Source: Squalus acanthias (taxonomy: Eukaryota). Taken from it: a stretch of 64,000 nt of DNA. The translations under genes and the position numbers were made by a program. Under the pieces are notes generated by a model. That model ran no database searches. It was not told where the DNA came from and saw nothing but the letters and a program-made list of their open reading frames with translations. Numbering within the stretch: the first letter of the stretch is position 1; every line of letters starts with the position of its first letter. The stretch lies in assembly GCA_030390025.1 (NCBI GenBank), contig CM059446.1:38316001-38380000 (forward strand), given 5' to 3'. Positions 1 to 51,688 of this stretch are shown piece by piece.

Positions 1-803
1 GCTGAAAAGTGCTTTTCATAATGCAAATTTCATTTCTAAAAACATTATAATGTGGCAAGAGCTTCAAAAGAACTTGTCCAAAAAATAACTCTGTAGCGAG
101 TGTGTGTGGAGGGGACGGGGGTTGGGGGGGGAGGGGAACGACTTTGAGACTGGGGCAAATTGTTGGTTTCTATGACTTTTCTTCAGCAGTTGCACTGGAT
201 AAAGCGTTCCAAATGAGGGATGGAATCAGCCAGCCCGGCCCAGGGAGCAATCCTGGAAACAGGGGGAATCAGTTAAAATCAGGCTTGAAGAACAGTATTA
301 CAACACGTAGCATCAACAAAACCAGCCCAGAAGAATCAACAAGATCGGCCTAATGAAATGATAAGAAAGTAGGTACAATTAGTAAGAGAGAGGAGGAAGG
401 TGGTGGATTCACAACAATTGGCCAAGGGGAGTGAGAGTAGGTGAATGATGAAGAAGTGGGAGGAATCAGTGATATTGGTCCACATGAATGAAGAGAAAAG
501 AGGTTTAATGCCTGGATGAGTGCAGCTCCAACAACACTCAAGAAGCTCAACACCATCCAGGACAAAGCAGGCCGCTTGATTGGCACCCCATCCACCACTT
601 TAAACATTCACTCCCTCCACCACCGGCGTACCGTGGCTGCAGTGTGCACCATCTACAAGATGCACTGCAGCAACTCGCCAAGGCTTCTTCGACAGCACCT
701 CCAAAACCCGCGACCTCTACCACCTAGAAGGACAAGGGCAGCAGGCGCATGGGAACACCATCACCTCCAAGTTCCCCTCCAAGTCACACACCATTCTGAC
801 TTA

Positions 804-915
804 AATGAGAAGTCGCAAAACACCAGGTTATAGTCCAACAGTTTTATTTAAAATTACGAGCTTTCGGAGCTGCTGCCCCTTCGTCAGGTAGAGGTACCGT
901 CAGGCATCTCCGCAT
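804..915. mobile_element. Miniature Penelope-like insertion (family 1): inverted 3' end plus forward tail fragment
   Basis: 12-bp TSD CATTCTGACTTA at 792-803 and 916-927. 804-890 matches 20266-20352. GGCATCTCCGCAT (903-915) matches the tail GGCATCTCCACAT at 23137-23149. Confidence 0.85.
854..890 (-). ncRNA. Minimal hammerhead ribozyme (PLE-type)
   Basis: Minus strand reads UAC-CUGACGA-A-GGGGC-AGCA-GCUCC-GAAA-GC-UC-GUAA: core CUGANGA/GAAA, 5-bp stem II, AGCU palindromic stem III. Confidence 0.75.
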
Positions 916-3115
916 CATTCTGACTTAGAAATATATCGCTGTTCCTTCATCATCACTGGGTCAAAATCCTGGAACTCCCTCCCTAACAACACCTTGGGAG
1001 TACCTTCACCACAAGGACTGCAGCGGTTCAAGAAGGCAACTCACCACCACCTTCTCAAGGGTAATTCGGGATGGGCAATAAATGCTGGCCTTGCCAGCAA
1101 CGCCCACATCCCAGGAACGAATAAAAAAAAATGGAAATTGCTCCAGGGAAGAGATATAGAAACATATGGGATCAGAGGGATCCAAGGGATTGAAAATGGA
1201 CTAAATCAACACGATTACCCAGATGAATGAGCAGAAACTGGGTGGAATCAGTAACACTGACTTGTATGAGTGATGAAGGACTGGGTGGCATCAGAACCAA
1301 CAAAGACAAATGGAACCGGGTGGAATCAGCAAGACTGCCCAGGAAAACAATGTGGAAGTTAGTCAAGTCACTGAGATTAGCCCAGATCAGTAATGTGGAA
1401 CCAACTGAAATCACAGAGACCGGCCAAGAGGAATAGATGTACAAGTGGGTCATCTTGCTAATTTCACCTACTTTCACACTCACATGGGCCAAATTCCACC
1501 TTCTTTCATATCATTCTCTCTCAATCAGAGGGACTGTTCCAGGAGAATATTTAGAAGCGGATAGGCCAGAAAGATTTTTATGCAAATAGATGGAATCAGT
1601 GAACATGTTTCTTATTAAAGAAAACCTCAAATATGCAAGCAGCTCATTATTAATCTTCCTCAGCCATGAGCTCCTAGCTCACACCCTACACTGAACATTT
1701 AATTGCACTCAAATTGTGCTATGAAATATTTGCAACAATACATTAATTCCTTTGTTAAAATAGAAGACAGGGGAGTTTCCTATGAACACATTGTGCATGT
1801 TATTACTATTAACAGTATGATTTCAACATTCAAGTGTGAATTAACATCCTGGATGTACCCATCACAACACATGGTATGGGTATTCATTAGTACATTATAT
1901 CCCCTCTATTCTTCAAGGTGTTAAAGGTATCTGCTCAGCTAACTCGAACTGGTGTATTGTTATTATTTATTCACAACCCGCTAATAATAGACTCTGTTAG
2001 ACACTTCCCTTGATGGTATCCTTCAGACCTTCTGATTTATATTTCCTCCCTGATGCTTTCTGTACACTATGGAACTGTTTCCAGTGTGTGCACAATTGTT
2101 CAGGAGTCACTTTCATGACTTTTAACAACCTGGCAAGGACCGTCTCCGATCTCAGAGGAAGAGCTGTACAAGTCAACAATGGTGAAGTGCCTTTCTGTCC
2201 TGAAAGGATGGGCTGTGTTTTACGGTTTCACAAATGTTTGTCGAGTTGCTGGTTTCTGCGACTTTCTCTCGGCCGTTGCACTGGATAAAGCTTTCCCCGC
2301 TGTTTGAATCAACACTTTACTTCAAGCATTGACCTCAGGCCAATAAATTGTGTTTTTTTTTGCTATGTCTGTCTGAAACCAAAGGCTTCATATTCATAAT
2401 ACGACAATTTAATAATGATCTATTTTCCCTTTCATCACAAAGAATGTTGCATATACTTTTTTTTGTTTTTAGATCCAATGGCAGTACTGAACTCTTCGAT
2501 AACTGGGAGTTGTGCGGTCATTCAGTGTGCTAAAGGCATTCATATTCATTAGGTTTATACTTGCACAGAGCTTAGCATTATTTTTACAGCAGTATTCAGG
2601 GTGGTTTATTGCGCTATCATTTATTTAGAGTAAGTTACACAGCAAATATATTCACAATATAAGTGCTGGATGAATTGGAGTCATATAAATTGATTGATCA
2701 GTAGTGTTCTCTGGCTGCACTTACTCATTCCATTCTGATGTGTGTACCATCCTTTAGAGACTTGGTCTGTGCTCCATCCTGTAGTACATAGTGGTTTAGA
2801 CCAATAGCACCTTGAAAAGTGGTTTTGTCTGCACAGTTTACCTAGGCAGGGCAGTGTGCTTGCTTCATTCTGTGCGGATAATTGTAACAATTATTACTTG
2901 TGCTGTTCCCGATTGTTCCCTTTGGTGCTTAGTTTGTTATGTGTATGCTGTTTATTGGTGAAATGTGACTTTTCTGATTTAAGGCTTGCTCTCTGTGCCT
3001 GTACCTGGAATGCTGCTGTTTTGAAAGTTCAATCTACAATCGGCAAGTTTTCCAGGATTATGTCTGATTCACCTTAGCTGCAGTTCAGGATGTCGTTGTT
3101 TTTGTATCCTCAGTC

Positions 3116-3549
3116 TGTCAGCTGTGGCTCAGTGGGTAGCACTCCTGCCTCTGGGTCAGAAGGTTGTGGGTTCAAAGTCCCACTCCAGTGACTTGAGCAC
3201 AAAAATCTGGGCTGACACTCCCAGTGAGGGAGTGCTGCACTGTTGTTGGTACCGTCTTTTGGATGAAATATTAAACCGAGGCCCCGTCTGCTCTCTCAGG
3301 TGGATGTAAAAGATCCCATGGCACTATTTCGAAGAAGAGCAGGGGAATTATCCCCGGTGTCCTGGCCAATATTTATCCCTCAACCAACATCACTAAAACC
3401 GATTACCTGGTCATTATCACATTGCTGTTTGTGGGAGCTTGCTGTGCGCAAATTGGCTGCCGTGTTTCCTACATTACAACAGTGACTACACTTCAAAAAT
3501 ACTTCATTGACTGTAAATTGCTTTGGGACATCCTGAGGTCGTGAAAAGG
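3116..3549 (+). mobile_element. tRNA-derived DeuSINE (SacSINE1-like)
   Basis: A-box TGGCTCAGTGGG and B-box-like GGTTCAAAGTCCC, Deu-like core (TAAAAGATCCCATGGCACT...CCCCGGTGTCCTGGCCAA), LINE-like tail. Near-identical copies at 6477, 7990 and 20015. Confidence 0.85.
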
Positions 3550-3552
3550 TAA

Positions 3553-3878
3553 TAGAGGTAGTGGAAGGATTTGCAGGCTGATTAACAATCTGACAGGCCG
3601 CAACGTGAATGCTCCTTCCATGGCCATAACCAGCTTTTATGTACCAGCCAGACAGGGTGGTTAGTCTATATGGCGGGAGGGGTTTATGAGCTCCCACAAC
3701 TCATTCAATGAGGGGATGGGCACCCACGCCCAGCCAAAGTGAGTATCTTGCTGGATGTCAACCCACAATTAAGAGCTGGAGCTCCGGTCTCCATTCACCA
3801 GGACTGTCTGAAGCGAGGTTCGAACCCTGCACCTCCTGACTCAGGGGCGGGGCGGCTACCTACTAATCCAAAGGCTCG
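3553..3878 (-). mobile_element. Probable degraded tRNA-headed SINE
   Basis: 3815-3878 reads on the minus strand as a tRNA-like head (GAGTCAGGAGGTGCAGGGTTCGAACC). The extent of the body is uncertain. Confidence 0.35.
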
Positions 3879-3970: not shown

Positions 3971-4572
3971 GGGTAGATTTCACGATTCATGCTTCCGGCA
4001 CAGAGCATTGCATGCTGGGAGTGTATAGCAGAAATTTTCCCAAGGAAGTGAGCGGGCCCCACATGGACAGAGAATCCTGTGGGGTCCACATGGACCAAGA
4101 ATCCTGTGGGCCCACATGGACCAAGAATCCTGTGGGGTCCACATGGACCAAGAATCCTGTGGGCCCCACATGGACCAAGAATCCTGTGGGGTCCACATGG
4201 ACAGAGAATCCTGTGGGGTCCACATGGACCAAGAATCCTGTGGGGTCCACATGGACAGAGAATCCTGTGGGGTCCACATGGACCAAGAATCCTGTGGGGT
4301 CCACATGGACAGAGAATCCTGTGTGTCCCAAATGGACAGAGAATCCCGTGGGCCCCAAATGGACAGAGAATCCCGTGGGCCCCAAATGGACAGAGAATCC
4401 TGTGGGCCCCAAATGGACAGAGAATCCTGTGTGTCCCACATGGACAGAGAATCCTGTGGGTCCCACATGGACAGAGAATCCCGTGGGTCCACTGACCTCC
4501 GCTCCCAAAATCTTGATACGTGCACCCAACATGCAAAGCTCCAGCCAGGGTGTAAATTTGTAAAATCTATCC
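3971..4572. mobile_element. Fold-back MITE-like element enclosing a minisatellite
   Basis: ~90-bp imperfect inverted arms: GGGTAGATTTCACGATT...GCATGCTGGG (3971-4058) versus CCCAACATGC...TTTGTAAAATCTATCC (4490-4572). Confidence 0.65.
4057..4492. repeat. 27-bp minisatellite, 16 units
   Basis: Unit CCACATGGAC(AG/CA)AGAATCCTGTGGGGT. One unit is 26 bp. It produces the 9-aa repeat ORFs in several frames. Confidence 0.95.
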
Positions 4573-6072
4573 GCATGTGTCGAATAAGACTAAACTATAC
4601 AGGGAAAAAAAGGACAATGGGGAGAAAAAAAGGTAAAGAATAAGGTAAAATGGGGAAAACATGAGAAAAGAAAAAAAATCCTAAATGATACCTCTGTAAT
4701 CTTCAGAACATTCTGCTACTGCCTAATAATTACCATTTGATATTAGTGGTCAAACGTTTAATGCGTTTGATTGACATGTCTTTGTCCACTGTTTTAACGG
4801 AGGCCCTAATCCTTTCATTTTAAAGCTTCTTTTGTTCGCATGTTTAATGCATTTTGGACGGTGGACATGTGACAACATGCCACTTCATTCAGGTTTCTAG
4901 AACATTTGATAAGGCGCCTAACGAGTAATTCTTTTAGTAATGTTGACTTTGTAATATCATAAGGACTGTGCCATTTTGAGCTACATGGTTGCCTGTTTGC
5001 GAAATTGACGGTGTTGTGAGCTGGTCCAGAAAGAACAGGCAGTCACACAGACAGAAAATGATCAGGTTTAAAATGTATATAAACTGGTTATAGCATGACG
5101 AGCGCACGTTTCTTGCAACGTTTTCATCTTGTCTTTACTCCTATCCCTTCTGCACCCTCCCTCTGGATAAAATGCGACTCAGAGAAGGAGATTTCTGTGA
5201 AGTTCTGCAGATTGCCTGCAAATTCCTACCCAGAAAAAAATGTTTCTGTATGGAAAGAACAATAACATCTTAATGCCCCAGAGTCTGACTCCTTGAATCC
5301 AAGCTGGTGAAATGAATGAAGGATTTGCTCAGGGTCAAATACCTCACCTACTGACCCAAGAGCCGGGGAGAATCATCACACGTAGAGGCAAGTGGGAACA
5401 TCCAGCACATTGTGGATTTCAACCTGCAGATGTGTGAAGCCCACACTTGTCTATGCATAATATATTCACACATTTCCCTTCTGCGATTATGCATAAAACT
5501 AAATTCGTTCAAAAGTTCAAAATGGGACCACAGGAATGTGAAGCAAAAGCAAAAAAATAAAATAAAATTTGGAGGCTGGAAATCCAAAACAAAATCAGAA
5601 AATGCCAGAAACACTGAGCAGGTATATGAAGGTTTGACTAAGAAAAGCCAGTTGAAGAAATTGTCGCAACAGGAGGTTCATGCAAAAGTGACTCCTGTGA
5701 ATATAATGCAAGTGAGAGTCACATGCACAATCATACAGAATGCAACCCTATTTTTCACAGCAAAACGCAATCACTTTCAGGGACAGTAGTTTATTTAATG
5801 TTACCATTTATGGGGCAGATTTCTTCAGTGCATTATGCATAACAAAATCATAAACCCAGTTATAAGGTTTACCGTTTGTTATACAAACTGTCGGGATTGG
5901 ATAGCTGAACCTGGAAAGCAGACTGGCTAACTTTCAAGATATTCTTATAAGCTTGCAACCACTTTTAAATGTATGTCGACTGATTGGCGAATTCAAACCA
6001 GTATTGTCGGTCAGAGTTGTTTTTATTGAAGTTTATCACAGCAGACATGGCAACACTTTTGAGTGTCACACT

Positions 6073-6476: not shown

Positions 6477-6921
6477 GCACACTTGCCTCTGAGTCAGAAG
6501 GTTGTGGGTTCAAGTCCCACTCCAGGTTCTTGAGCACATAAAGCTAGGCTGACACTCCAGTGCCGTGCTGAGGGAGTGCTGCACTGTCGGAGGTGCCATC
6601 TTTCGGATGAGACGTCAAACCGGGGCCCCGTCTGCTCTCTCAGGCGGACGCAAAAGATCCCATGGCACTATTTCGAAGAAGAACAGGGGAGTTATCCGCG
6701 GTGTCCTGGCCAATATTTATCCCTCAACCAACATAACCAAAACAGATTATCTGGTCATTATCTCATTGCTGTTTGTGGGAGCTTGCTGTGCGCAAATTGG
6801 CTGCCGTGTTTCCCACATTACAACAGTGACTACACTCCAATAAAGTACTTAATTGGCTGTAAAGCGCTTTGAGACATCCGGTGGTCGTGAAAGGCGCTAT
6901 ATAAATGCAAGTCTTTTTTTT
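6477..6921 (+). mobile_element. DeuSINE copy, slightly 5'-truncated
   Basis: B-box GGTTCAAGTCCC, Deu core, tail GTAAAGCGCTTTG...GGCGCTATATAAATGCAAGTC followed by a T run. Confidence 0.88.
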
Positions 6922-10836: not shown

Positions 10837-11132
10837 ATTGTTTACAACTGGCTAAGTGCTATTTTTTTTCCTTTACAGCAAGGCAAGAAGATCCACAAGG
10901 TCATCCTAATCCCTCAGGACTACAATCTGTACCACAGCATACTCCGTCACCCACTTTACTAGAAACAAACAGCAGTCAAGCAATAAATATGCTGGCGGAC
11001 AATAGTGAGTTTAAGGAGGGTAAGTTACTGATCATGAGGAATGGGCAAAAGTGATGGGATGATGGGCTGACTTCTGCTGAATGGTTCGGGGCCCTCCTGG
11101 GTTGCTTCATGATTCTAACCTCACAGAGCCAC

Positions 11133-11324
11133 TGACGTAAGAAAACTACTAGGCACTTGGTCTAAGCGTTAAACAAAGCTTTAATCAACTGTTTTACAAC
11201 ATGGAGATCTAGTTGTGTCCTTCACTAGTTCCTGTTAAGAATGTCCTGCGCAAGCTGGGCCCGTGCCCGAGTATTTATACTCTCCCTGGACAGCGCCACC
11301 CGCAGGCCACTCAGTATTATTTCA
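11133..11324 (-). mobile_element. Possible ~190-bp solo LTR
   Basis: TG...CA ends. On the minus strand a TATAAATA is followed ~90 nt later by ATTAAA. No TSD found. Confidence 0.25.
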
Positions 11325-12299
11325 TAAGTCTTTCTTTCATGAATGACAGATTCATGTCAGCCACCATGAACCGTAGGTTACTTCTTGAATAAGAGTAGCT
11401 GAGCCAGTCTCTTGCTTCAAAGCAAGCTGGGATGGCCACCGTTGCCGATTCGACCACGCAGTTTGCCACTTTCGTGGAGCAAGAGTTGTCTGCTCTACAC
11501 ACTGCCATTGAGCAACATGACCCATCAATGGTTTCAGGCATGGTGAGTGAGAAGGCAGTAGCAGCATTCCTCTTACTGATGTTGACAAGGCGCTGAGGTT
11601 AACATTTCTATGATGTGATCACTGCTGGCTTCAGCACACATAAAGGCAGATAACAGGTAATCATGACTGAGGGATTCAGAGCCCTCAGTTTATGATCGCA
11701 TAGACCAGTGGATGAACCTAAAATTCAGCTTCCAATAATGGCATGCATGTTGAAGCACCAGAACAGGCATGTGGGTCTCAAATCGCAGCCAGTCCCTAAC
11801 AAGTGACCGGGGAAGCTGAAGCAATCATATAGGCCCCTACGGCTGAAATAAGACAGGCTATTCCTGGCTCACTGGCAGGACAATCTGCATCCTCATTACG
11901 CTGAGGTAGGTAGGCAGTTGAATCACAAGCAAGTCTTCGGGGTTGGGGGTCGTTCAGGAATCCACCACCTCTACCTCTTCTGCTAGGTGAGTAGGAGGCA
12001 GAGCGCAATGAAGCACAAGGGGCAAGCACAGCGGTGCATCACAACCATGGCATCCACTCATCGTAAATATACTATCGCTGAAAGAAATCAAAACTATGAA
12101 TGTTGTAAACATTGCATTCATGTGTTATTTATTTCTGTTGATAAGGTGCACCCTTATTGTATTGCAGAGCAGCCTGCGAAATGGAGGTCGCAAGTATTAA
12201 TAACTGAATGATTTATGTGCCTCTGCTTGCAGACAGAAACATTTGTCTATGCAATCTCCCTCATTTGAGACGCTTGAACCAAACCTTGGTTCGGAGGGT

Positions 12300-13190
12300 G
12301 AATGTCACCCTAACCCTTACCCTTACCCTTATCCTCGCCCTCTTCTTATGGCCTGCCTTGCAGCTGTTCATCTCTTCCAAGTACGTTGCTATGACAATCT
12401 GTGCATTGTGCTACATACCACTATTATTCTGGTTCAGGCCTGTGTGTTAAGGCACTCCCAGAACAGTCAAAACATCTAAAATGTTTTAATAGTCCAAAGG
12501 TGTGCTCTATTATACTTCTTCTCCTACACTGAAAATGATCAAAATCTCTTTCCGGAGGGGTTAGAGGTTTCCTCAAGGGTCCCAACAGTCAAGTTTTGGG
12601 AGTCTATCATACAATCAATTTTCATTCCAGAATAGGTGTGGAACTCATGATCCCATTAAAAATGCATGTGTCATGGGCATTGCCGAGAAAGGGCGCATTT
12701 ACATGCATCATTTCATACCTCTGCTCACATACCCTCTGTACCTTAAGCAAACAGCAACCCTCTCTATTCACAAAAGACATGAATTGCAGTCAAGTGCAGA
12801 GATAGCTGCATGAGTACAATTAACACGACCACACATCTGAAAAATTGTGCCTGTTTCTGCAACTGTTGTTGCATGTTGCTTCTGAACTACCACCATATGA
12901 AGTGGCATGCTAAAATAGGGCATCCATTGCCTCTTTGATGCTGTGGTGAGCTGCGTATTAAAGAATTCTATTGATGTCTCCATCTGGTGCCTGGACGAAC
13001 CCAGGTTCACAGGTGTTTAGTGCAGTGGTAACTTAAGAGTGCCATTTGTATAATGTTTGTTGGCTGCAGATCTGCCTGCCAAAAGCTGACATACGCCAAA
13101 GATAGCATTCTTTCTGAGGCACAGCCGCCTCATAACTTGACCCCTGGTGAGGTCAAGGTAGCCGTCACGTGTGTGGTACTTTTGGTGTCT
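12300..13190 (-). pseudogene. Decayed PIF/Harbinger (HARBI1-family, DDE_Tnp_4) transposase
   Basis: Collinear minus-strand motifs across frameshifts: YLDLTRGQVMRRLCL, VTTALN, GRVNCTHAAI (cf. GAIDCTHV), FVNREG...VCEQ...FLGNAHDTCI (12661-12773), PLRKP...IIEHTFGLLK, FRCFDCSGSAL, IIVVCSTMH. Confidence 0.8.
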
Positions 13191-16100
13191 GCAGAGCTCC
13201 TTGTCCTGAGGGTCCACTTTATCTGCCGTTGGACCTCCCTGGCTATGGTCTCCTGGTATCCTCATCCGTCATCACGCCCTGCGACACCCATGTTACTGAA
13301 AGCCTCGTGTTGTCAATGTGTTCTTACGGGAAAGTTCAAACATCACAATACTTTTACGCAAACTCACAGATTTACTCCTTCTCAACACAGGTTTAGCCCA
13401 TGAGCTGTCGCTGACTCACAGAGTAAATTAAACCCTTAGTTGCTAAGCCTTAAACCATGCTGACTAGATGCAATGAGTCCCCAGCAAAACCAATTATGAG
13501 GTCTGGTTTTTTTTCAACTGTTGATTTATGGCTTTTTCCAAAGCTTCACATACAGAAAGAAACAAAAGTTATGAAGGTCTGATTAGCACATACATGAGTT
13601 ATTACACCATATCTGGCCTCTTTAAATAGAATTTTTATGCAATGGATACTTTGAGCAGAAACGTTTGAACACATTAACTGAGCATAAACATATGGATTGA
13701 ACAAAATGTTGGGGCCTAATTGGTCGGTGTTTAGTTATTAAACACAATACTTGCTAAATACACAATGCGTTCTTAATGCAATTCAGTGGTTAAGTCATAA
13801 TGGATTGAATTTACATTCCCTGTAATGTCCCAAATAAGTACTAATATTTAGAGATGACACAATTTTTTTTAGATCTAGAAACACAGGAATATTTCATTAA
13901 AATCTAATCCTTTAAGTGGAGTAATAAAGTATGTTCAGATAAGGGGCATGTCCCTCTCCTGTCTGTGCTCCAAACCTTCTGTCTGTTTTTCTATTTAGCC
14001 ATTGTAAGTAGCTGCATCAAACAGATGTTTGGAAATGGACACAGTTATCTTATATGTCTTTCAGCTGTAGTCCCACCACCCAAACTGGGCACTGGGGATT
14101 AGGACCACCACCATTACCAAAGTCTGAAAAACGATTATGGCACCGTACTCCTTCCTCTTCTCATAAATCTAATTAACAATTACAGCAATTATGTAGAACC
14201 CTTATGCATTTTAGGTTAAAAATGTCAATACCCTTAATAACGTGTTAATGAAATGACACCAGCAAGGCACCCCGAGACGTAAGCACGAAATATTAAAATA
14301 TCCTGCTGTGGTTGCCAGCGATAAGTCCCTGGCAGATCTTAACTAGTAAATCTCTGTTGAATTTTCCAGCATCTTCTGGCAATATCAGCTTCAAAGCGCT
14401 GTAAAGATTCACTGCGAGAAATATTGTTGCCATTATGAGTGCATCAAAGTGCCAATCACCGTGTTTATATGCATTGGATATGCTGATGCATTCCTCAATT
14501 CTCTGTACCTTTACTGCACTAAAATTCCATATAAACAAACACTCAACAGTTCTGCTCAGATTTTACTGCTGCTAGTTGACGTGCTGTATAATATTGGAGC
14601 GCTATCTGCAGCACATACAAGCACTCTCACAGGCCACTGACAATGTGTCTTATACATGCGTGTGTGCACACTCTCACTCGCACATACTCACACATACAAG
14701 CACACCCAGTCATTTCAAAACTGCTGCTTCCTTCAGTGAAGTTCAACGGTACTTAAAATGGGCGCATATATTATAATGAAGAAGCATTTGGTTTATAAAC
14801 TAAATATAAATAGGATAAATTAAATCATGTTTGTTCTTGAACTGCAAATATGATGCCTGGGTCCTTAATGAAATTTTGGTATCACGTCCAAAAATATACA
14901 ATATGCTTAACAAAAAATAGAATCCTGTGCCTTGTACTTCTAATTAGTCTACACAACCTGTAATTTTTTAGTGCCTTACTTTTGAATAATTTAAGCAGTG
15001 TTTGCATTTCTCATGTGTAAAGCTAAATCTGCTTCACACGTTTCATGCCAACCTGATTGATTATTGACTTACTAATCAATCACCGTTTATTAATGCTGCA
15101 CTGTAATAGTATGAAGGCATTCGATACAACAACCCAAAATACATTACATTTGCCAACGCTAGATAGTGGTCATGGAAAAATGAGTGTTTTGTGAGTGGCA
15201 CAGTCTGATAAAACTGGTGAAGAGCTCCTGCATAAATCCATCAGGGAAAGAAAAATGAAAGCCCTGCTAGAGATGAGAGGGTGAAGGGTCCATTGAAAAT
15301 CAGAGAGATTACCAGCTCATCACATTATTTGTGGGTTATCAGGAGACAGTGGTAATGAAAGTGAAAGCTATCTTCTGATCAATAAGAGTTTGACTGTGTT
15401 TGGAGTTCATTTTCCCCTGCCGAGAAAGGCAGCAAGGAGCTATTGATCATTTTGTTAATCCATAACTGGTCTCAGCCTCCCCTCGTGGACAAGGAGGAAA
15501 AAATAACATAATAGCCAGATGCACTTGATCTTTTATTTTTTGCTGTGAGAATGTGGTCTGATGAGACTCGGTGGCAAAGGTGGAGTCCTGAATTTAAAGG
15601 CGGGGAGGTGACTGTTTGGCCTTCTCTGAAGTGCTTTTGTAGTAAGGGTTAGAATCTCTTCATCAGGATGTCTATAGTGGTGTTAGTGGATAACGCCATT
15701 ATTAATTGTGCCTGCTTGTACAATGTCAGCTGGCAGCAGAGATTGAGACAGATGAGGTCTTAGGAGTCAGTGACTCAGGCTGGCGAGTGCAGGCTTCTAA
15801 CCTCCCATCACTTAACAGTGCAGGTGCACTATTTCACATCCATCAGCATTTAATGTTTTAAGATTTAATCAGTGGTGCTTGAAGGAAAACACGGCATTAG
15901 AATAGCCCTCAACTGTAAATCAAAATTGAGGGTTTTCATAAATTCTTCTGACTAGAATGGAACATTTAAAGAACACTGCTTTTACATAACCCATGTATAT
16001 TTATTACAGAATAATAAAACTGTCAGTTAAAACGCTGAAGTAGATAGTAAAAATATATTTTTCTCTAGTAGCAATCCATCTCTTCATGATTATGTATTTA

Positions 16101-20014: not shown

Positions 20015-20266
20015 AGAAAGAAAGAGCTTGCATTTATATAGCTCCTTTCATGACCTCAGGATGTCCCAAAGCGCTTTACAGCCAATTAAGTACTTTTGAA
20101 GTGTAATCATTGTTTAATGTACGAAATGCGGCAACCAATTTGCACACAGCAAGATCCCACAAACAGCAATGTGATAATGACCAGATCATTTGTTTTTAGT
20201 GATGTTGATTGAGGGATAAATATTGGCCAGGACACTGGGGATAACTCCTCTGCTCTTCTTCAAATA
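20015..20266 (-). mobile_element. DeuSINE, 3' part (split by the Penelope insertion)
   Basis: Reverse-complement SINE tail and core up to CTTCTTCAAATA. Continues in register at 23155. Confidence 0.88.
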
Positions 20267-20314
20267 TGAGAAGTCGCACAACACCAGGTTATAGTCCAAC
20301 AGATTTATTTAATT

Positions 20315-20353
20315 TTACAAGCTTTCGGAGCAGTTCGCTCCTTCGTCAGGTAA
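20315..20353 (-). ncRNA. Minimal hammerhead ribozyme (left arm copy)
   Basis: Reverse complement of 23025-23063. Confidence 0.78.
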
Positions 20354-20574
20354 GTTAGCAGTGAGAGAATCTCCCAGAATTCACAATTTGAACACAGACA
20401 AAATCTATTCACATCTTTCCCTACATCAAAGAGCACAGCCAAGACAATGAGATGTGTCCCAGGGGGTCCAACGTGTCAAACCACCTGCTGGCTGCATATC
20501 CTGTCAATTTGTGTAGGTTCTTGTGTTAGTCTTTTTAAAAAAAAACACCTGGGAAGACCGGCCATGATGTCAAG

Positions 20575-21609
20575 TCACGTTCTGTATCGTGACATGAACC
20601 CGATATCGCGATTGAGGCCATCCTCATGAGTGCGGAACTTGGCTATCAGTTTCTGCTCTATGATTTTGCGCTGTCGTGTATCTCGAAGGCTGCCTTGGAG
20701 AACGCTTACCCGCAGATCCGAGGCTGAATGCCCCTGGCTGCTGAAGTGTTCCCCGACTGGGAGGCAACCCTCCTGCCTGGCGATTGTTGCGCGGTGTCCG
20801 TTCATACGTTGTCTCAGTGTCTGCATGGTCTCGCCGATGTACCATGCTCTGGAGCATCCTTTACTGCAACGTATCAGGTAGACAACGTTGGCCGAGTCAC
20901 ATGAGTATGTACCGTGTACCTGGTGGGTAGTGTCCTCACGTGTGATGATGGTATCTCTGTCCATGATTTGGCATGTCTTGCAGAGGTTGCCATGGCAGGG
21001 TTGTGTGGTGTCTTGGTTGCTGTTCTCCTGAAAGATGGGTAATCTGCTGCGAACGATGGTACTTTTGAGGTTAGGCGGCTGCTTGAAGGCGAGTAGTGGA
21101 GGCGTGGGGATGGCCTTAGCAAGGTGTTCGTCATCATCGATGACATGTTGAAGGCTGCGAAGAACATGGCATAGTTTTTCCGCTCCGGGGAAGTACTGGA
21201 CGACGTAGGGTACTCTGTTGGTTGTGTCCCGTGTTCGTCTTCTGAGGAGGTCTATGCGGTTTTTCGCTGTGGCCCGTCGGAACTGTCGATCGACGAGTCG
21301 AGCGTCATATCCCGTTCTTACGAGGGCGTCTTTCAGTGTCCGTAGGTGTCCATCGCGTTCCACCTCGTCTGAACAGATCCTGTGTATTCGCAGGGCTTGT
21401 CCATAGGGGATGGCTTCTTTAACGTGGTTAGGGTGGAAGCTGGAGAAGTGGAGCATCGTGAGGTTGTCCGTGGGCTTGCGGTAGAGTGAAGTGCTGAGGC
21501 GTCCGTCTTTGATGGAGATTCGTGTGTCCAAGAATGAAACCGATTCTGAGGAGTAGTCCATGGTGAATTTGATGGTGGGATGGAACCTGTTGATGCTATC
21601 GTGTAGTCC
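20575..21609 (-). CDS. Inverted, 5'-truncated PLE ORF: RT C-terminal part + GIY-YIG endonuclease
   Basis: Open frame (within ORF 20575-21633) identical to the plus copy except KFT/KLT and EVE/EEE. Lacks the YIDD motif. Confidence 0.85.
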   Translation of the reverse strand, partial: GLHDSINRFHPTIKFTMDYSSESVSFLDTRISIKDGRLSTSLYRKPTDNLTMLHFSSFHPNHVKEAIPYGQALRIHRICSDEVERDGHLRTLKDALVRTGYDARLVDRQFRRATAKNRIDLLRRRTRDTTNRVPYVVQYFPGAEKLCHVLRSLQHVIDDDEHLAKAIPTPPLLAFKQPPNLKSTIVRSRLPIFQENSNQDTTQPCHGNLCKTCQIMDRDTIITREDTTHQVHGTYSCDSANVVYLIRCSKGCSRAWYIGETMQTLRQRMNGHRATIARQEGCLPVGEHFSSQGHSASDLRVSVLQGSLRDTRQRKIIEQKLIAKFRTHEDGLNRDIGFMSRYRT

Positions 21610-21614
21610 AAATC

Positions 21615-22802
21615 GTGGGGACCAAATTCGCACCCCAATACGCCAACATCTTCATGCACAAGTTCGAGCAAGACTTCTTCGCTGCACAGGACCTCCAACC
21701 AACGCTATACACCAGATACATCGACGACATCTTCTTCCTTTGGACCCACGGCGAAGGATCACTGAAAGGACTACACGATAGCATCAACAGGTTCCATCCC
21801 ACCATCAAACTCACCATGGACTACTCCTCAGAATCGGTTTCATTCTTGGACACACGAATCTCCATCAAAGACGGACGCCTCAGCACTTCACTCTACCGCA
21901 AGCCCACGGACAACCTCACGATGCTCCACTTCTCCAGCTTCCACCCTAACCACGTTAAAGAAGCCATCCCCTATGGACAAGCCCTGCGAATACACAGGAT
22001 CTGCTCAGACGAGGAGGAACGTGATGGACACCTACGGACACTGAAAGACGCCCTCGTAAGAACGGGATATGACGCTCGACTCGTCGATCGACAGTTCCGA
22101 CGGGCCACAGCAAAAAACCGCATAGACCTCCTCAGAAGACGAACACGGGACACAACCAACAGAGTACCCTACGTCGTCCAGTACTTCCCCGGAGCGGAAA
22201 AACTATGCCATGTTCTTCGCAGCCTTCAACATGTCATCGATGATGACGAACACCTTGCTAAGGCCATCCCCACGCCTCCACTACTCGCCTTCAAGCAGCC
22301 GCCTAACCTCAAAAGTACCATCGTTCGCAGCAGATTACCCATCTTTCAGGAGAACAGCAACCAAGACACCACACAACCCTGCCATGGCAACCTCTGCAAG
22401 ACATGCCAAATCATGGACAGAGATACCATCATCACACGTGAGGACACTACCCACCAGGTACACGGTACATACTCATGTGACTCGGCCAACGTTGTCTACC
22501 TGATACGTTGCAGTAAAGGATGCTCCAGAGCATGGTACATCGGCGAGACCATGCAGACACTGAGACAACGTATGAACGGACACCGCGCAACAATCGCCAG
22601 GCAGGAGGGTTGCCTCCCAGTCGGGGAACACTTCAGCAGCCAGGGGCATTCAGCCTCGGATCTGCGGGTAAGCGTTCTCCAAGGCAGCCTTCGAGATACA
22701 CGACAGCGCAAAATCATAGAGCAGAAACTGATAGCCAAGTTCCGCACTCATGAGGATGGCCTCAATCGCGATATCGGGTTCATGTCACGATACAGAACGT
22801 GA
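21615..22802 (+). CDS. 5'-truncated PLE ORF: RT (motifs B-E, thumb) + Cys linker + GIY-YIG endonuclease
   Basis: 395 aa: GTKFAPQYANIFM, RYIDDIF, FLD, YRKPT, linker CHGNLCKTC (Neptune-type), VVYLIRC...WYIGET...LRQRMNGH, IEQKLI, GLN. No stops, but the N-terminal RT motifs are absent. Confidence 0.92.
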   Translation: MGTKFAPQYANIFMHKFEQDFFAAQDLQPTLYTRYIDDIFFLWTHGEGSLKGLHDSINRFHPTIKLTMDYSSESVSFLDTRISIKDGRLSTSLYRKPTDNLTMLHFSSFHPNHVKEAIPYGQALRIHRICSDEEERDGHLRTLKDALVRTGYDARLVDRQFRRATAKNRIDLLRRRTRDTTNRVPYVVQYFPGAEKLCHVLRSLQHVIDDDEHLAKAIPTPPLLAFKQPPNLKSTIVRSRLPIFQENSNQDTTQPCHGNLCKTCQIMDRDTIITREDTTHQVHGTYSCDSANVVYLIRCSKGCSRAWYIGETMQTLRQRMNGHRATIARQEGCLPVGEHFSSQGHSASDLRVSVLQGSLRDTRQRKIIEQKLIAKFRTHEDGLNRDIGFMSRYRT

Positions 22803-23024
22803 CTTGACATCATGGCCGGTCTTCCCAGGTGTTTTTTTTTTAAAAAGACTAACACAAGAACCTACACAAATTGACAGGATATGCAGCCAGCAGGTCGTTT
22901 GACACGTTGGACCCCCTGGGACACATCTCATTGTCTTGGCTGTGCTCTTTGATGTAGGGAAAGATGTGAATAGATTTTGTCTGTGTTCAAATTGTGAATT
23001 CTGGGAGATTCTCTCACTGCTAAC

Positions 23025-23063
23025 TTACCTGACGAAGGAGCGAACTGCTCCGAAAGCTTGTAA
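23025..23063 (+). ncRNA. Minimal hammerhead ribozyme in the PLE 3' region
   Basis: UUAC-CUGACGA-A-GGAGC-GAACU-GCUCC-GAAA-GC-UU-GUAA: stem I UUAC/GUAA, perfect 5-bp stem II, AGCU palindrome. Predicted cut after 23059. AATAAA follows at 23069-23074. Confidence 0.8.
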
Positions 23064-23154
23064 AATTAAATAAATCTGTTGGACTATAACCTGGTGTTGT
23101 GCGACTTCTCATTTTTGTCCACCCCAGTCCAACGCCGGCATCTCCACATCATGA

Positions 23155-23348
23155 CTTCTTCAAATAGTGCTACGGTATCTTTTACGTCCACCTGACAGGG
23201 CAAACAGGGACTCGGTTCAACGTATCATCTGAAAGACGGCACCTCCAGCAGTGCAGCACTCCCTCAGTACTGCACTGCAGTGTCAGCCTGAAATTTGTGC
23301 TCAAGTCTTTGGAGTGGGACTTGAACCCACAACCTTCTGACTCAGAGG
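23155..23348 (-). mobile_element. DeuSINE, 5' part (continuation of 20015-20266)
   Basis: CAAATAGTGC...GGGACTTGAACCCACAACCTTCTGACTCAGAGG, the reverse-complement core and tRNA head. Confidence 0.88.
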
Positions 23349-24650: not shown

Positions 24651-24677
24651 AAGCATTTAGTGGAGCTCTCTATGGTG

Positions 24678-25181
24678 AGGACCTCACTGTCCTCGGCCTC
24701 GTGCATTGTTCCACGGAAGCTCAGCGTAAGCTCGAGGAACAGCACCTCATCTTTCGTTTAGGCACTTTACAGCCTTCCGGACTCAATATCGAGTTCAACA
24801 ATTTCAGATCATAACCCCGGCCCCCACCATATATATATACATTTTATCCACCATTTTGGTTCGTGCCTTTTTCCTTTTTTTCTCTCTCTCCCCCTACGAC
24901 AGCCGTCTCTCATTCTGCCAGCATTTCACACTTCAACTTTTGTTTCTTAACCTGTCCCATTACCATCTCGTCTTGCCTTGAGCATCTCTTAATGTCTCTA
25001 CTTACCATAGTTATCTCCCCCACCCCGCCTCCCCCCAGCCTCCCCCTTGCATTTTTATCTGTTTCATTTCCTGCTCTTTTCTCAGTTCTGACGAAGGGTT
25101 TCGACCTGAAACGTTAACTCTGTTTCTCTCTCCACGGATGTTGCCTGGCCTGCTGAGTTTTTCCAGCGTTTTCTGTTGTTG
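24678..25181 (+). mobile_element. Penelope-like fragment (family 2), 5'-truncated, tail-less
   Basis: VLGLVHCSTEAQRKLEEQHLIFRLGTLQPSGLNIEFNNF is near-identical to the C-termini at 28325 and 30410. Ends at TTCTGTTGTT. Candidate 11-bp TSD TCTC(T/C)ATGGTG at 24667-24677 and 25182-25192. Confidence 0.85.
25084..25119 (+). ncRNA. Minimal hammerhead ribozyme
   Basis: AGUU-CUGACGA-A-GGGU-UUCG-ACCU-GAAA-CG-UU-AACU: UUCG-capped stem II, ACGU palindrome. Confidence 0.78.
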
Positions 25182-25699
25182 TCTCCATGGTGTAGTTCAG
25201 TGGTCCTCAACCATATGAGTTGTGACCCTCCAGGGGGTTCATGGGCACCCGTCAAGGGTTTACCACCACTCTACTGCCTGATGCACCCGTCATGCCAGTC
25301 CTGGCTCCACCTTGTGCCTAACTCTGTTGCTTCACATCAGGAGTTGAGTGCTGTAGACAGGAATTCCTGACGTTATGATCGTTTTTGCAATATCAGGTCA
25401 ATTCTTCCACAGGTGGCAGAAGGCTCCTTCTTGGAGCAAAGCAACAGCACTGGGTAGTAGCTGGAATCAGGACCGGCAAGATGCAGTGAATGAGGGAGGG
25501 ACAGTGCCTGCGTGAACATGGGACAGGGCAAGAAAAAGTGCCTCCGTGAATAAGGAATGGGTCAAAGAAAATAGTATCTCTGTGAAAGGGGAAGGACTTT
25601 TAGTATTTAGTTAGTCATGGATACATTAAGGTTCTGAGGTAAGGCAATTGCCAAAATTCTAATTTCACAAAAAGAGGGTCCTAACATGCAAACAGGTTA

Positions 25700-28009: not shown

Positions 28010-28064
28010 GCTGGATGCTTGGTCAATTGAAATTCAAGACTGAAATCGACAGATTTTTATTAGG
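28010..28064 (+). mobile_element. CR1/HER1 3' fragment, left of the Penelope insertion
   Basis: TTCAAGACTGAAATCGACAGATTTTT (FKTEIDRF). Continues at 30709. Confidence 0.7.
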
Positions 28065-28128
28065 AATAACAACAGAAAATGCTGGAAACACTCTGCAGGC
28101 CAGGCAGCATCCGTGGAGAGAGAAACAG

Positions 28129-28165
28129 AGTTAACGTTTCAGGTCTGGGACCCTTCATCAGAACT
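28129..28165 (-). ncRNA. Minimal hammerhead ribozyme (left arm)
   Basis: Minus strand AGUU-CUGAUGA-A-GGGUC-CCA-GACCU-GAAA-CG-UU-AACU. Confidence 0.78.
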
Positions 28166-28324
28166 GGAAAAAGCTGGAGATGTAACAGATATTAAGCAGG
28201 TGCAGAGACAGGGAGGGGAGGAAGGAATTGAAGGAACATACTGTGCTTAGATAAGAGGCAGGAAAGATAAAATGTTGCAAATGGGGATGGCAAAATCATA
28301 CAGCATGAAAAATAGGGGCAGGGG

Positions 28325-29874
28325 TTATAGTTTGAAATTGTTGAACTCAATGTTGAGTCCAGAAGGCTGTAAAGTGCCTAATCGAAAGATGAGGTGCTGT
28401 TCCTCGAGCTTACGTTGAGCTTCATTGGAACAATGTAAGAGGCCGAGGACAGAGATCAGAGTGGGAGTGAGGTGGAGAATTAAAGTGACAGGCGACCGGA
28501 AGCTCAGGGTCACCCTTATAGACTGAACGGAGGTGTTCCGCAAAGCGGTCGCCCAATCTGCGTTTGGTCTCCCCAATGTAGAGGAGACCGCATCGTGAGC
28601 AGCGAATACAGTATACTAAATTACAAGAAGTACAAGTAAATCGCTGTTTCACCTGGAAGGGGTGTTTGGGGCCCTGGACAGTGGGAAGGGAGGAGGTAAA
28701 AGGGCAGGTGTTGCATCTCCTGCGCTTGCACGGGAAGCTGCCGGGCGAAGGGGAAGGGCTGATTGAGGAGTGGACCAGTGTGTCGTGGAGGTAGCGGTCC
28801 CTTCGGAATGCTGAAAGGGGAGATGAGGGGAAGATGCGTTTGGTGGTGGGATCACGTTGGAGGTGGCGGAAATGGCGGAGGATGATCCGTTGAATGTGGA
28901 GGCTGGTGGGGTGAAAGGTGAGGACAAGGGGAACCCTATCGTGGTTCTAGGAGAGAGGAGAAGGGGTGAGAGCAGAAGTGCGGGAAATGGAACGGACACG
29001 GTCAAGGGCCGTGTCAACCACAGTAGATGGGAATCCTCGGTTGAGGAAAAAGGAAGACATGTCAGAAGCACTGGTATGGAAGGTGGCATCGTCAGAACAG
29101 ACGCGGTGGAGACAGAGAAACTGGGAGAATGGAATAGAGTCCTTACAGGAGGCGGGGTTGGAGGAAGTGTAGTCCAGGTAGCTGTGGGAGTCAGTAGGCT
29201 TGGAGTGGACGTTTGTCGAAAACCGATCGCCAGAAATGGAGACGGAGAAGTCAAGGAAGGGAAGAGAAGAGTCGAATATGGACCATGTGAAGGTGAGGGA
29301 AGGGTGGAAATTAGAAGTAAAGTGAATGAACTTATCTAGTTCAGGGCGAGAGCAGGAAACGGCACCGATACAGTCATCGATGTACCGGAAAAAGAGGTGA
29401 GGGAGGGGACCTGAGTAGGACTGGAACAAAGAATGTTCCACATATCCCATGAAAAGGCAGGCACAGCTAGGGCCCATGCAGGTTCCCATAGCAACACCTT
29501 TAATTTGGAGGAAGTGAGTGGAGTCAGAGGTGAAGTTCTTCAATGTGAGAACAAGTTCAGCCAGGTTGACGAGGCTCGTGGTGGATTGGAACTTGTTGGG
29601 CCTCTGTTCAAAGAAGAAGCGGAGCGCCCTCAGGCCGTCCTGGTGGGGGATGGAGGTGTAGAGGGATTGGACATCCATAGTTAAAAGGAGACAGTTGGGG
29701 CCAGGAAACTGGAAACTGTTAAAGTGGCGGAGGGTGTCGGAAGAGCCGCGAATGTAGGTGGGAATAGACTGGACAAGGGGAGAAAAAATAGAGTCGAGAT
29801 AGGAAGAGATAAGTTCCGTGGGGCAAGAACAGACTGAAACGATGGGTCTACCAGGGCAGTCCTGTTTCTGGATC
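28325..29874 (-). pseudogene. Frameshifted PLE RT + GIY-YIG ORF
   Basis: MDVQSLYTSIP, KGVAMG, RYIDDC, FLD (ORF 28947-29678), LVYCIRCSRCGLLYIGETKRRLGDRFAEH (28422-28652) and the GLN C-terminus (28325-28576) lie in different frames. Confidence 0.9.
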
Positions 29875-30410
29875 CCACCACCAAACGCATCTTCCCCTCA
29901 CCTCCCCTTTCAGCATTCTGAAGGGACCGCTCTCTCCGCGACACCCTGGTCCACTCCTCAATCACCCCTAACAGCCCTTCCCCTTTGCCCGGCACCTTCC
30001 CGTGCAAGCGCAGGAGATGCAACACCTGCCCTTTTACCTCCTCCCTTCCCACTGTCCAGGGCTCCAAAGACCCCTTCCAGGTGAAACAATGATTTACTTG
30101 TACTTCTTGTAATTTAGTAAACTGTATTCGCTGCTCACGATGCGGTCTCCTCTACATTGGGGAGACCAAATGCAGATTGGGCGACCGCTTTGCGGAACAC
30201 CTCCATTCAGTCCGTAAGGGTGACCCTGAGCTTCCGGTCGCCTGTTACTTAAATTCTCCACCTCACTCCCACTCTGATTTCTCTGTCCTCGGCCTCTTAC
30301 ATTGTTCCAATGAAGCTCAACGTAAGCTCGAGGAACAGCACCTCATCTTTCGATTAGGCACTTTACAGCCTTCTGGACTCAACATTGAGTTCAACAATTT
30401 CAAACTATAA
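29871..30410 (+). pseudogene. Inverted-arm PLE GIY-YIG fragment with premature stops
   Basis: GTFPCKRRRCNTCP linker and YIGET are present. TGA (~30090) and TAA (~30118) replace CGA and TAC of the other arm. Confidence 0.85.
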
Positions 30411-30569
30411 CCCCTGCCCCTATTTTTCATGCTGTATGATTTTGCCATTCCCATTTGCAACATTTTATCTTTCCTGCCTCTTATCTAAGCACAGTATATT
30501 CCTTCAATTCTTTCCTCCCCTCCCTGTCTCTGCACCTGTTTAATATCTGTTACATCTCCAGCTTTTTCC

Positions 30570-30606
30570 AGTTCTGATGAAGGGTCCCAGACCTGAAACG
30601 TTAGCT
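30570..30606 (+). ncRNA. Minimal hammerhead ribozyme (right arm)
   Basis: AGUU-CUGAUGA-A-GGGUC-CCA-GACCU-GAAA-CG-UU-AGCU. Predicted cut after 30602. Confidence 0.78.
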
Positions 30607-30708
30607 CTGTTTCTCTCTCCACGGATGCTGCCTGGCCTGCTGAGTGTTTCCAGCGTTTTCTGTTGTTATTTCAGATTTCCAGCATCTGCAGTATTTTGCT
30701 ATTGTATT

Positions 30709-30848
30709 AGATTTTTATTAGGTATGTGTATCAAGGGATATGGATCAAAGGCGGGTAAATAAAGTGGAGTTACAAATCAGCCATGATCTAATTGACTGGA
30801 GGAACAGGCTCGAGGGGCTGAATGTCCTACTCCTGTTCCTATGTTTCT
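30709..30848 (+). mobile_element. CR1/HER1 3' terminus, right of the Penelope insertion
   Basis: ATCAGCCATGATCT...GGCTCGAGGGGCTGAATG...CCTACTCCTGTTCCTATGTT. Confidence 0.8.
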
Positions 30849-51529: not shown

Positions 51530-51688
51530 TAATACAAAAGCAAAATACTGCGGATGCTGGAAATCTGAAATAAAAACAGAAAATGCTGGAAATACTCAGC
51601 AGGCCAGGCAGCATCTGTGAAGAGAGAAGCAGAGTTAACGTTTCTGAAACGTTAACTTGGTTTTTATCTCCACAGAAACTGTCTGACT
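51530..51688. mobile_element. Miniature fold-back Penelope remnant (family 2 terminus)
   Basis: 51530-51644 is the reverse complement of ~30595-30708, including the tail. Centre AGTTAACGTTTC-T-GAAACGTTAACT (51633-51657). A diverged forward arm continues to ~51688. Confidence 0.8.

Follow-up and report, generated by a model that had tools for sequence, protein, structure and literature searches.

The insertion at positions 792-927 of the window (the whole stretch of 64,000 nucleotides analysed here) derives, judging from its sequence, from a Penelope-like element (PLE) of Neptune type, most of which is missing from this copy. We propose, with a probability of roughly 65%, that this insertion arose by twin priming, with reverse transcription starting at two sites defined by the element itself. 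Its parts, in the order in which they lie on the forward strand, are as follows.

792-803, + strand: left TSD, CATTCTGACTTA, 12 bp, in the 3' part of a host repeat that we take to be old and LINE-like
804-890, - strand: inverted arm, 87 nt of PLE terminal repeat, extending from the inner start of RT through the hammerhead
855-890, - strand: minimal type I hammerhead, found by a pattern scan with stem pairing
891-902: linker, 12 nt, between the inverted arm and the tail stub
903-915, + strand: tail stub, the last 13 nt of a tail of ~40 nt
916-927, + strand: right TSD, CATTCTGACTTA, 12 bp

The initial annotation had described a 112-bp insert with a 12-bp TSD, an inverted hammerhead piece, a 12-nt linker and a 13-nt tail end, and every part of that description was confirmed. 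The 112 bp at 804-915 are enclosed by perfect TSDs (12/12), which constitute the sole repeat of at least 7 nt between the flanking windows searched; a common 12-mer was found in 0.8% of random window pairs at the same spacing. No host paralogue spanning the insertion site was detected within the 64-kb window. The inverted arm is the reverse complement of 23026-23113, in the forward arm of a large insertion, with eight substitutions and one gap (89.9% identity to 23026-23114). There is no ORF in the short insertion, and its link to PLEs is this 90% DNA identity to the large copy. A 20-nt family marker occurs three times in the window, compared with no occurrence in 100 shuffles. The stub matches 23137-23149 at 12 of 13 positions, and the TSD bases 916-918 prolong the match through 23150-23152 to 15/16. 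A chance match as the source of the stub was rejected on a binomial estimate of 2e-7 over 10 offsets.

A 7-nt copy of 883-889 lies in the linker and runs on into the stub (p ~0.04, post hoc). Templated stutter, considered as the origin of the linker, is weakened as an explanation because variants of the family at 23023 and 23025 match linker bases 893 and 891, respectively, so that the first linker bases may be subfamily sequence. The whole is a single TSD-bounded unit in two orientations, without the tandem repeats of a retrozyme. Calling it a miniature of the large palindrome, as had been done from the letters, is apt for the layout only; the short insertion is not itself palindromic, its inverted 87 nt having no forward counterpart, and it is no derivative of the large copy.

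That large insertion belongs to the same family, here termed family A, and comprises the following parts.

20255-23166: two-armed insertion of family A, with 12-bp TSDs at 20255-20266 and 23155-23166
20267-21609, - strand: inverted arm, tail-less
~21615-23154, + strand: forward arm, with the RT thumb, GIY-YIG endonuclease, hammerhead and tail (~23113-23154)

Its TSD sequence is present as a single copy in the host paralogues at 3325-3337 and 6669-6681. The two arms probably come from one source, because only eight of 1,349 positions differ between them, one of these being target-derived. They meet at a short, locally repeated linker, though both arms are long. The forward arm encodes, at 21615-22799, 395 residues without a stop, including YIDD and the thumb, followed by a linker of the form CX4CxxC and an endonuclease of GIY-YIG type with the residues VVYLIRC..C..WYIGET, R...H, and later H, E and N. 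It thereby has the PLE arrangement, namely a single ORF in which RT is followed by a C-terminal GIY-YIG domain with the CCHH motif. A Pfam search of this ORF returned a weak RVT_1 match (E 0.022) and none to GIY-YIG. Among the best 120 of 323 relatives, shark proteins stand at the top (91% for the first), followed by turtle, crocodilian and invertebrate proteins. RVT_1, HTH_animal and GIY-YIG domains are present in these listed homologues and in Atlas clusters.

The zinc-finger linker between RT and endonuclease reads PCHGNLCKTC in family A and PCKRRRCNTC in a second family of the window, family B. A CX2-5CxxC linker in this place marks the Neptune/Nematis clade (PMC8557442), and the element would be of Neptune type by this motif, which is common to Neptune and Nematis. 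The insertions also show the inverted 5'-truncated copy, the TSD (11-14 bp) and the 30-40 bp tail at one end that characterize PLEs, the tail measuring ~40 nt in family A and 38 nt in family B.

The hammerhead of the short insertion consists of stem I (890-888/857-855), the core (887-881), stem II (880-866) and GAAA (865-862), and its cut is predicted, from the motif pattern only, between 858 and 857. Because the inverted arm crosses this predicted cut, the template would not have been cut by its own hammerhead. Six minimal hammerheads were found in the window by the pattern scan, all within PLE arms; the motif lies at 887 (-), 20349 (-) and 23029 (+), and is also present in family B. An Rfam search gave no hammerhead match at the gathering threshold, nor at E up to 10, and the predicted fold was not favoured over shuffles (z ~+1), as expected for minimal motifs. 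The window motifs have in common with the minimal hammerheads of metazoan PLEs (PMC4209133) the type I core, the short stem I, the unpaired base before stem II and a palindromic minimal helix III; at the level of sequence motifs, no difference was found from the minimal motifs in the accessible part of that paper.

A ribozyme match of another kind lies at 3563-3637 (- strand), where Rfam reports a CPEB3/HDV-like ribozyme (49.9 bits; gathering score 35). It adjoins a dispersed repeat at ~3140-3546, of the same family as the repeat that hosts the large PLE insertion, and might represent the ribozyme at the 5' end of a retroelement. A tandem array with a 27-bp period occupies 4027-4539.

The relationship between the two family A insertions was assessed with Logan contigs from four of the 24 SRA runs listed, aligned to 22807-23166 (runs X1 and X3 are one sample). 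Five of the nine differences between the short insertion and the large copy (the gap at 23042 and the changes at 23044, 23064, 23065 and 23075) are variants of many family contigs, the first two dominating in run X22, which is from another organism. As these are widespread family variants, the short insertion stems from a different subfamily than the large one, its derivation from the large copy is rejected, and the proposal that the two insertions are independent is upheld. The inverted-arm start common to both is therefore more telling. It lies, in forward coordinates, at 23113-23114 for the short insertion and at 23111-23112 for the large one. The offset amounts to 1-3 nt, because 1 nt of each is shared with the TSD, in agreement with the near-identical breakpoint claimed at the outset.

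Family B contributes two further TSD-bounded insertions.

28051-30722: two-armed insertion of family B, TSD 14/14
28065 to ~29870, - strand: its inverted arm, 1.8 kb, tail-less, carrying most of the RT
29871-30708, + strand: its forward arm, 0.84 kb, with the tail at 30671-30708
24667-25192, + strand: direct copy of family B, with an 11-bp TSD (10/11), an inner-site end and a tail at neither end

The inverted arm of the two-armed insertion is twice as long as the forward arm, from which ~1 kb of it is absent, and the two differ at 28 of 789 positions, nine of them at CpG. The direct copy ends no more than ~3 nt from the inner site. All four TSD-bounded PLE insertions of the window (two of two in family A and two of two in family B) thus end at their family's inner site within ~3 nt, a count that leaves out the fragments at 51530-51644 and ~5545-5622, which have no clear TSD. 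The suggestion that the start is fixed by the element is supported by these four. The tail end stands at the other TSD in three of them; the accompanying claim, that the tail is attached at the other target end however little else is copied, holds for these three, the short insertion included, and fails for 24667-25192, which is tail-less at both ends. A two-ended, TSD-bounded layout is common to the short insertion and the large insertions of families A and B.

Two tail-bearing stubs of family B were also observed. At 51530-51685, a stub of 115 nt (- strand, 92%) stands head to head with a 42-nt piece on the + strand (79%), the joint falling at the hammerhead GAAAC with a 1-nt spacer; a TSD was not found. 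The other, at ~5545-5622 (- strand), is old, with ~80% identity and no clear TSD.

Loose contig ends with long unlike flanks pile up at 23152-23153 (61+48 contigs in X5, 64 in X3 and 27 in X22), which coincides with the end of the stub match in the short insertion (23152). Among 32 listed contig pieces, selected by length out of ~43,800, right-hand loose ends of at least 5 nt occur in 17, with four at 23116-23121, 13 at 23145-23159 and none between. The four inner-site pieces, which probably stand for three loci, end 2-9 nt past the expected inner site. Ends slightly beyond 23112-23114 are expected if alignments continue into look-alike target bases, and the alignments of the window's own inverted arms continue to 23117-23119. 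One joint, at 23114, is found in each of X1, X3 and X5, with the depth of a single locus. Among the loose ends listed for organism A, a listing that stops 530 rows short, the inner site does not appear. The tail end is well supported and the inner site modestly supported. Contig depth along the repeat, which at 23106-23130 drops in organism A and rises in X22, was set aside because it is not a copy number. Exact-pattern scans of metagenome contigs, prokaryote genomes and viral contigs gave no match.

At the inner site, the target ends agree with the element at 4/6 and 5/6 positions in family A and weakly in family B, a post hoc likeness that is given no weight here. In both families, a short stretch of the tail is repeated in inverted form upstream of the inner site: 8 bp in A (23078-23085/23126-23133; shuffle p 0.012) and 7 bp in B (within 30615-30708; p 0.014). 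Folding of the whole region was not clearly better than that of shuffles (83/500 in A and 17/500 in B). These repeats give a weak hint of a stem-loop that could enclose the inner start site, and they could serve as microhomology for insertions of ~60 bp.

Under twin priming, the endonuclease would make one nick in each target strand, with 12 nt between the nicks and 3' overhangs as the result. The bottom-strand 3' end would prime where the tail of the RNA ends, with 3-nt pairing in the short insertion, and the top-strand 3' end would prime ~40 nt further in, at the inner border of the tail. The two cDNAs would then extend towards each other and be joined head to head via a short linker, while fill-in of the overhangs would yield the TSD. 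Arm lengths would be independent of each other (87 and 13-16 nt in the short insertion), and the template would be uncleaved RNA, read across the predicted hammerhead cut. The stub is explained more simply as an aborted tail-end-primed cDNA than as a separately attached piece. We infer the use of one start site per target strand in a single event, as well as the order of events and the route of joining. The proposal rests on four TSD-bounded insertions, one of which is tail-less, and unequal arms can also be obtained by later deletion. Moreover, the arms of the large insertions cover the same sequence, so that two RNAs, or one that is re-read, would be needed.

If a single RNA were used, the tail-primed RT would reach the second primer after ~40 nt, which would explain a stub of 13-16 nt. 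A programmed form of twin priming can be conceived on this basis, in which a dimeric protein holds one RNA in such a way that priming by one target strand invariably occurs at the tail end, and priming by the other 40 nt upstream, at the inner site; we hold this stricter version only tentatively, at somewhat less than even odds. The tail-primed RT would either displace the second primer, giving a long overlapping palindrome, or abort, leaving a stub of <40 nt, as in the short insertion, or no tail. If true, the programmed version would account at once for the inverted arm, for a tail that is optional and confined to one side, and for the stub-bearing short insertions, and it would be testable from genomes alone. 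In organism A, 11,000-16,000 contigs aligned per run, and with a family this abundant the mechanism behind the inverted arms and one-sided tails could be decided by a census.

The main rival to twin priming is collapse of a longer insertion, which we judge unlikely. The short insertion would be a former long two-armed palindrome that lost its centre by deletion and end-joining, and its short stub would therefore be uninformative on integration. Long inverted repeats are prone to deletion. The linker's 7-nt copy of the adjoining arm end (p ~0.04) resembles end-joining scars, and the short insertion shares variants with the contigs of X22, from another organism, so it may be older. Yet long palindromes survive in the window, with arms at 99.4% (A) and 96% (B), and the TSDs and flanks of the short insertion are intact. 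Nor need linkers imply later deletion, because the large A junction, where the arms are long, has a repeated linker as well; the short arm-end copies at both A junctions are compatible with end-joining either at insertion or after a later deletion.

We consider it improbable, more so than collapse, that only one cDNA was made, with self-priming or fold-back producing the inverted arm and endonuclease resolution of the intermediate leaving the tail on one side. Such a course has been put forward for PLEs, junction palindromes being attributed to self-priming by Arkhipova et al. 2013 (PMC3846280) and EN-mediated resolution being given as the origin of the tail by Craig et al. 2021, and the near-identical arms of the large A insertion are in keeping with it. 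However, extra deletions would be required, both for the inverted 87 nt of the short insertion, which lack a forward template, and for the ~1 kb of family B's inverted arm that is missing from the forward arm, and no hairpin is present at the junction of either the short insertion or the large A insertion. Because the inverted arm of the short insertion has no twin and that of family B is longer than its forward arm, the evidence argues against fold-back and for twin priming; stub insertions of this kind distinguish the two. That the 112-bp unit is a non-autonomous mobile family copied whole is very improbable, for although non-autonomous PLE derivatives (retrozymes) are known (bioRxiv 10.64898/2026.07.22.740005), the window holds one copy, the linker is not among the loose ends listed, each end falls at a start site of the autonomous family itself and there is no tandem array.

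Published accounts of PLEs already include inverted copies truncated at the 5' end, TSDs and a 30-40 bp tail that is optional and one-sided (PMC3846280, PMC8557442), and the formation of such arms and tails is treated as an open question (PMC8557442, PMC11167929). In Pen2a_Av of Adineta vaga (PMC3846280; scheme in PMC8557442), an inverted copy of the terminal repeat lies beside a direct copy with the TSD outside, as here. The published PLE examples in the accessible text keep at least the pLTR on both sides, whereas the direct copy in the short insertion is reduced to 13-16 nt of tail. Neither one start site per target end nor tail-only stubs were found in the literature searched, a scope that takes in few subscription papers and neither the 2004-2006 Penelope papers cited for the tail nor Fig. 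S2 of PMC11167929. As a sequence feature, the short insertion is ordinary, its layout being already known for PLEs.

The inversion point of L1 insertions is variable. In the window elements, a constant distance of ~40 nt separates the two starts, and an overlap of >1 kb between the arms is possible, whereas L1 arms, as far as described, barely overlap. The nearest mechanistic model is nevertheless L1 twin priming (Ostertag and Kazazian 2001, summarised in PMC10760644), to which the likeness extends to the second target priming, the joining of cDNAs by microhomology and the inverted 5' part inside the TSD.

In PAc, the Poseidon element of Anolis carolinensis, both target strands are cut and extended, RT begins at two internal fixed sites that bound the tail downstream of the hammerhead, and uncleaved RNA is the main template, later steps not having been validated (Frangieh et al., PMC11167929). 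The window element differs from this Poseidon element in its Neptune/Nematis zinc-finger linker and in a primer microhomology of 1-3 nt, priming by PAc being described as non-homologous. In the window copies, each target end also has a start site of its own, whereas the in vitro data reported for PAc show no difference in start site between the strands, a point that counts against twin priming. Under the proposed scheme, the window elements share with PAc the uncleaved template and the extension of both target strands, along with the two fixed start sites bounding the tail, downstream of the hammerhead (PMC11167929).
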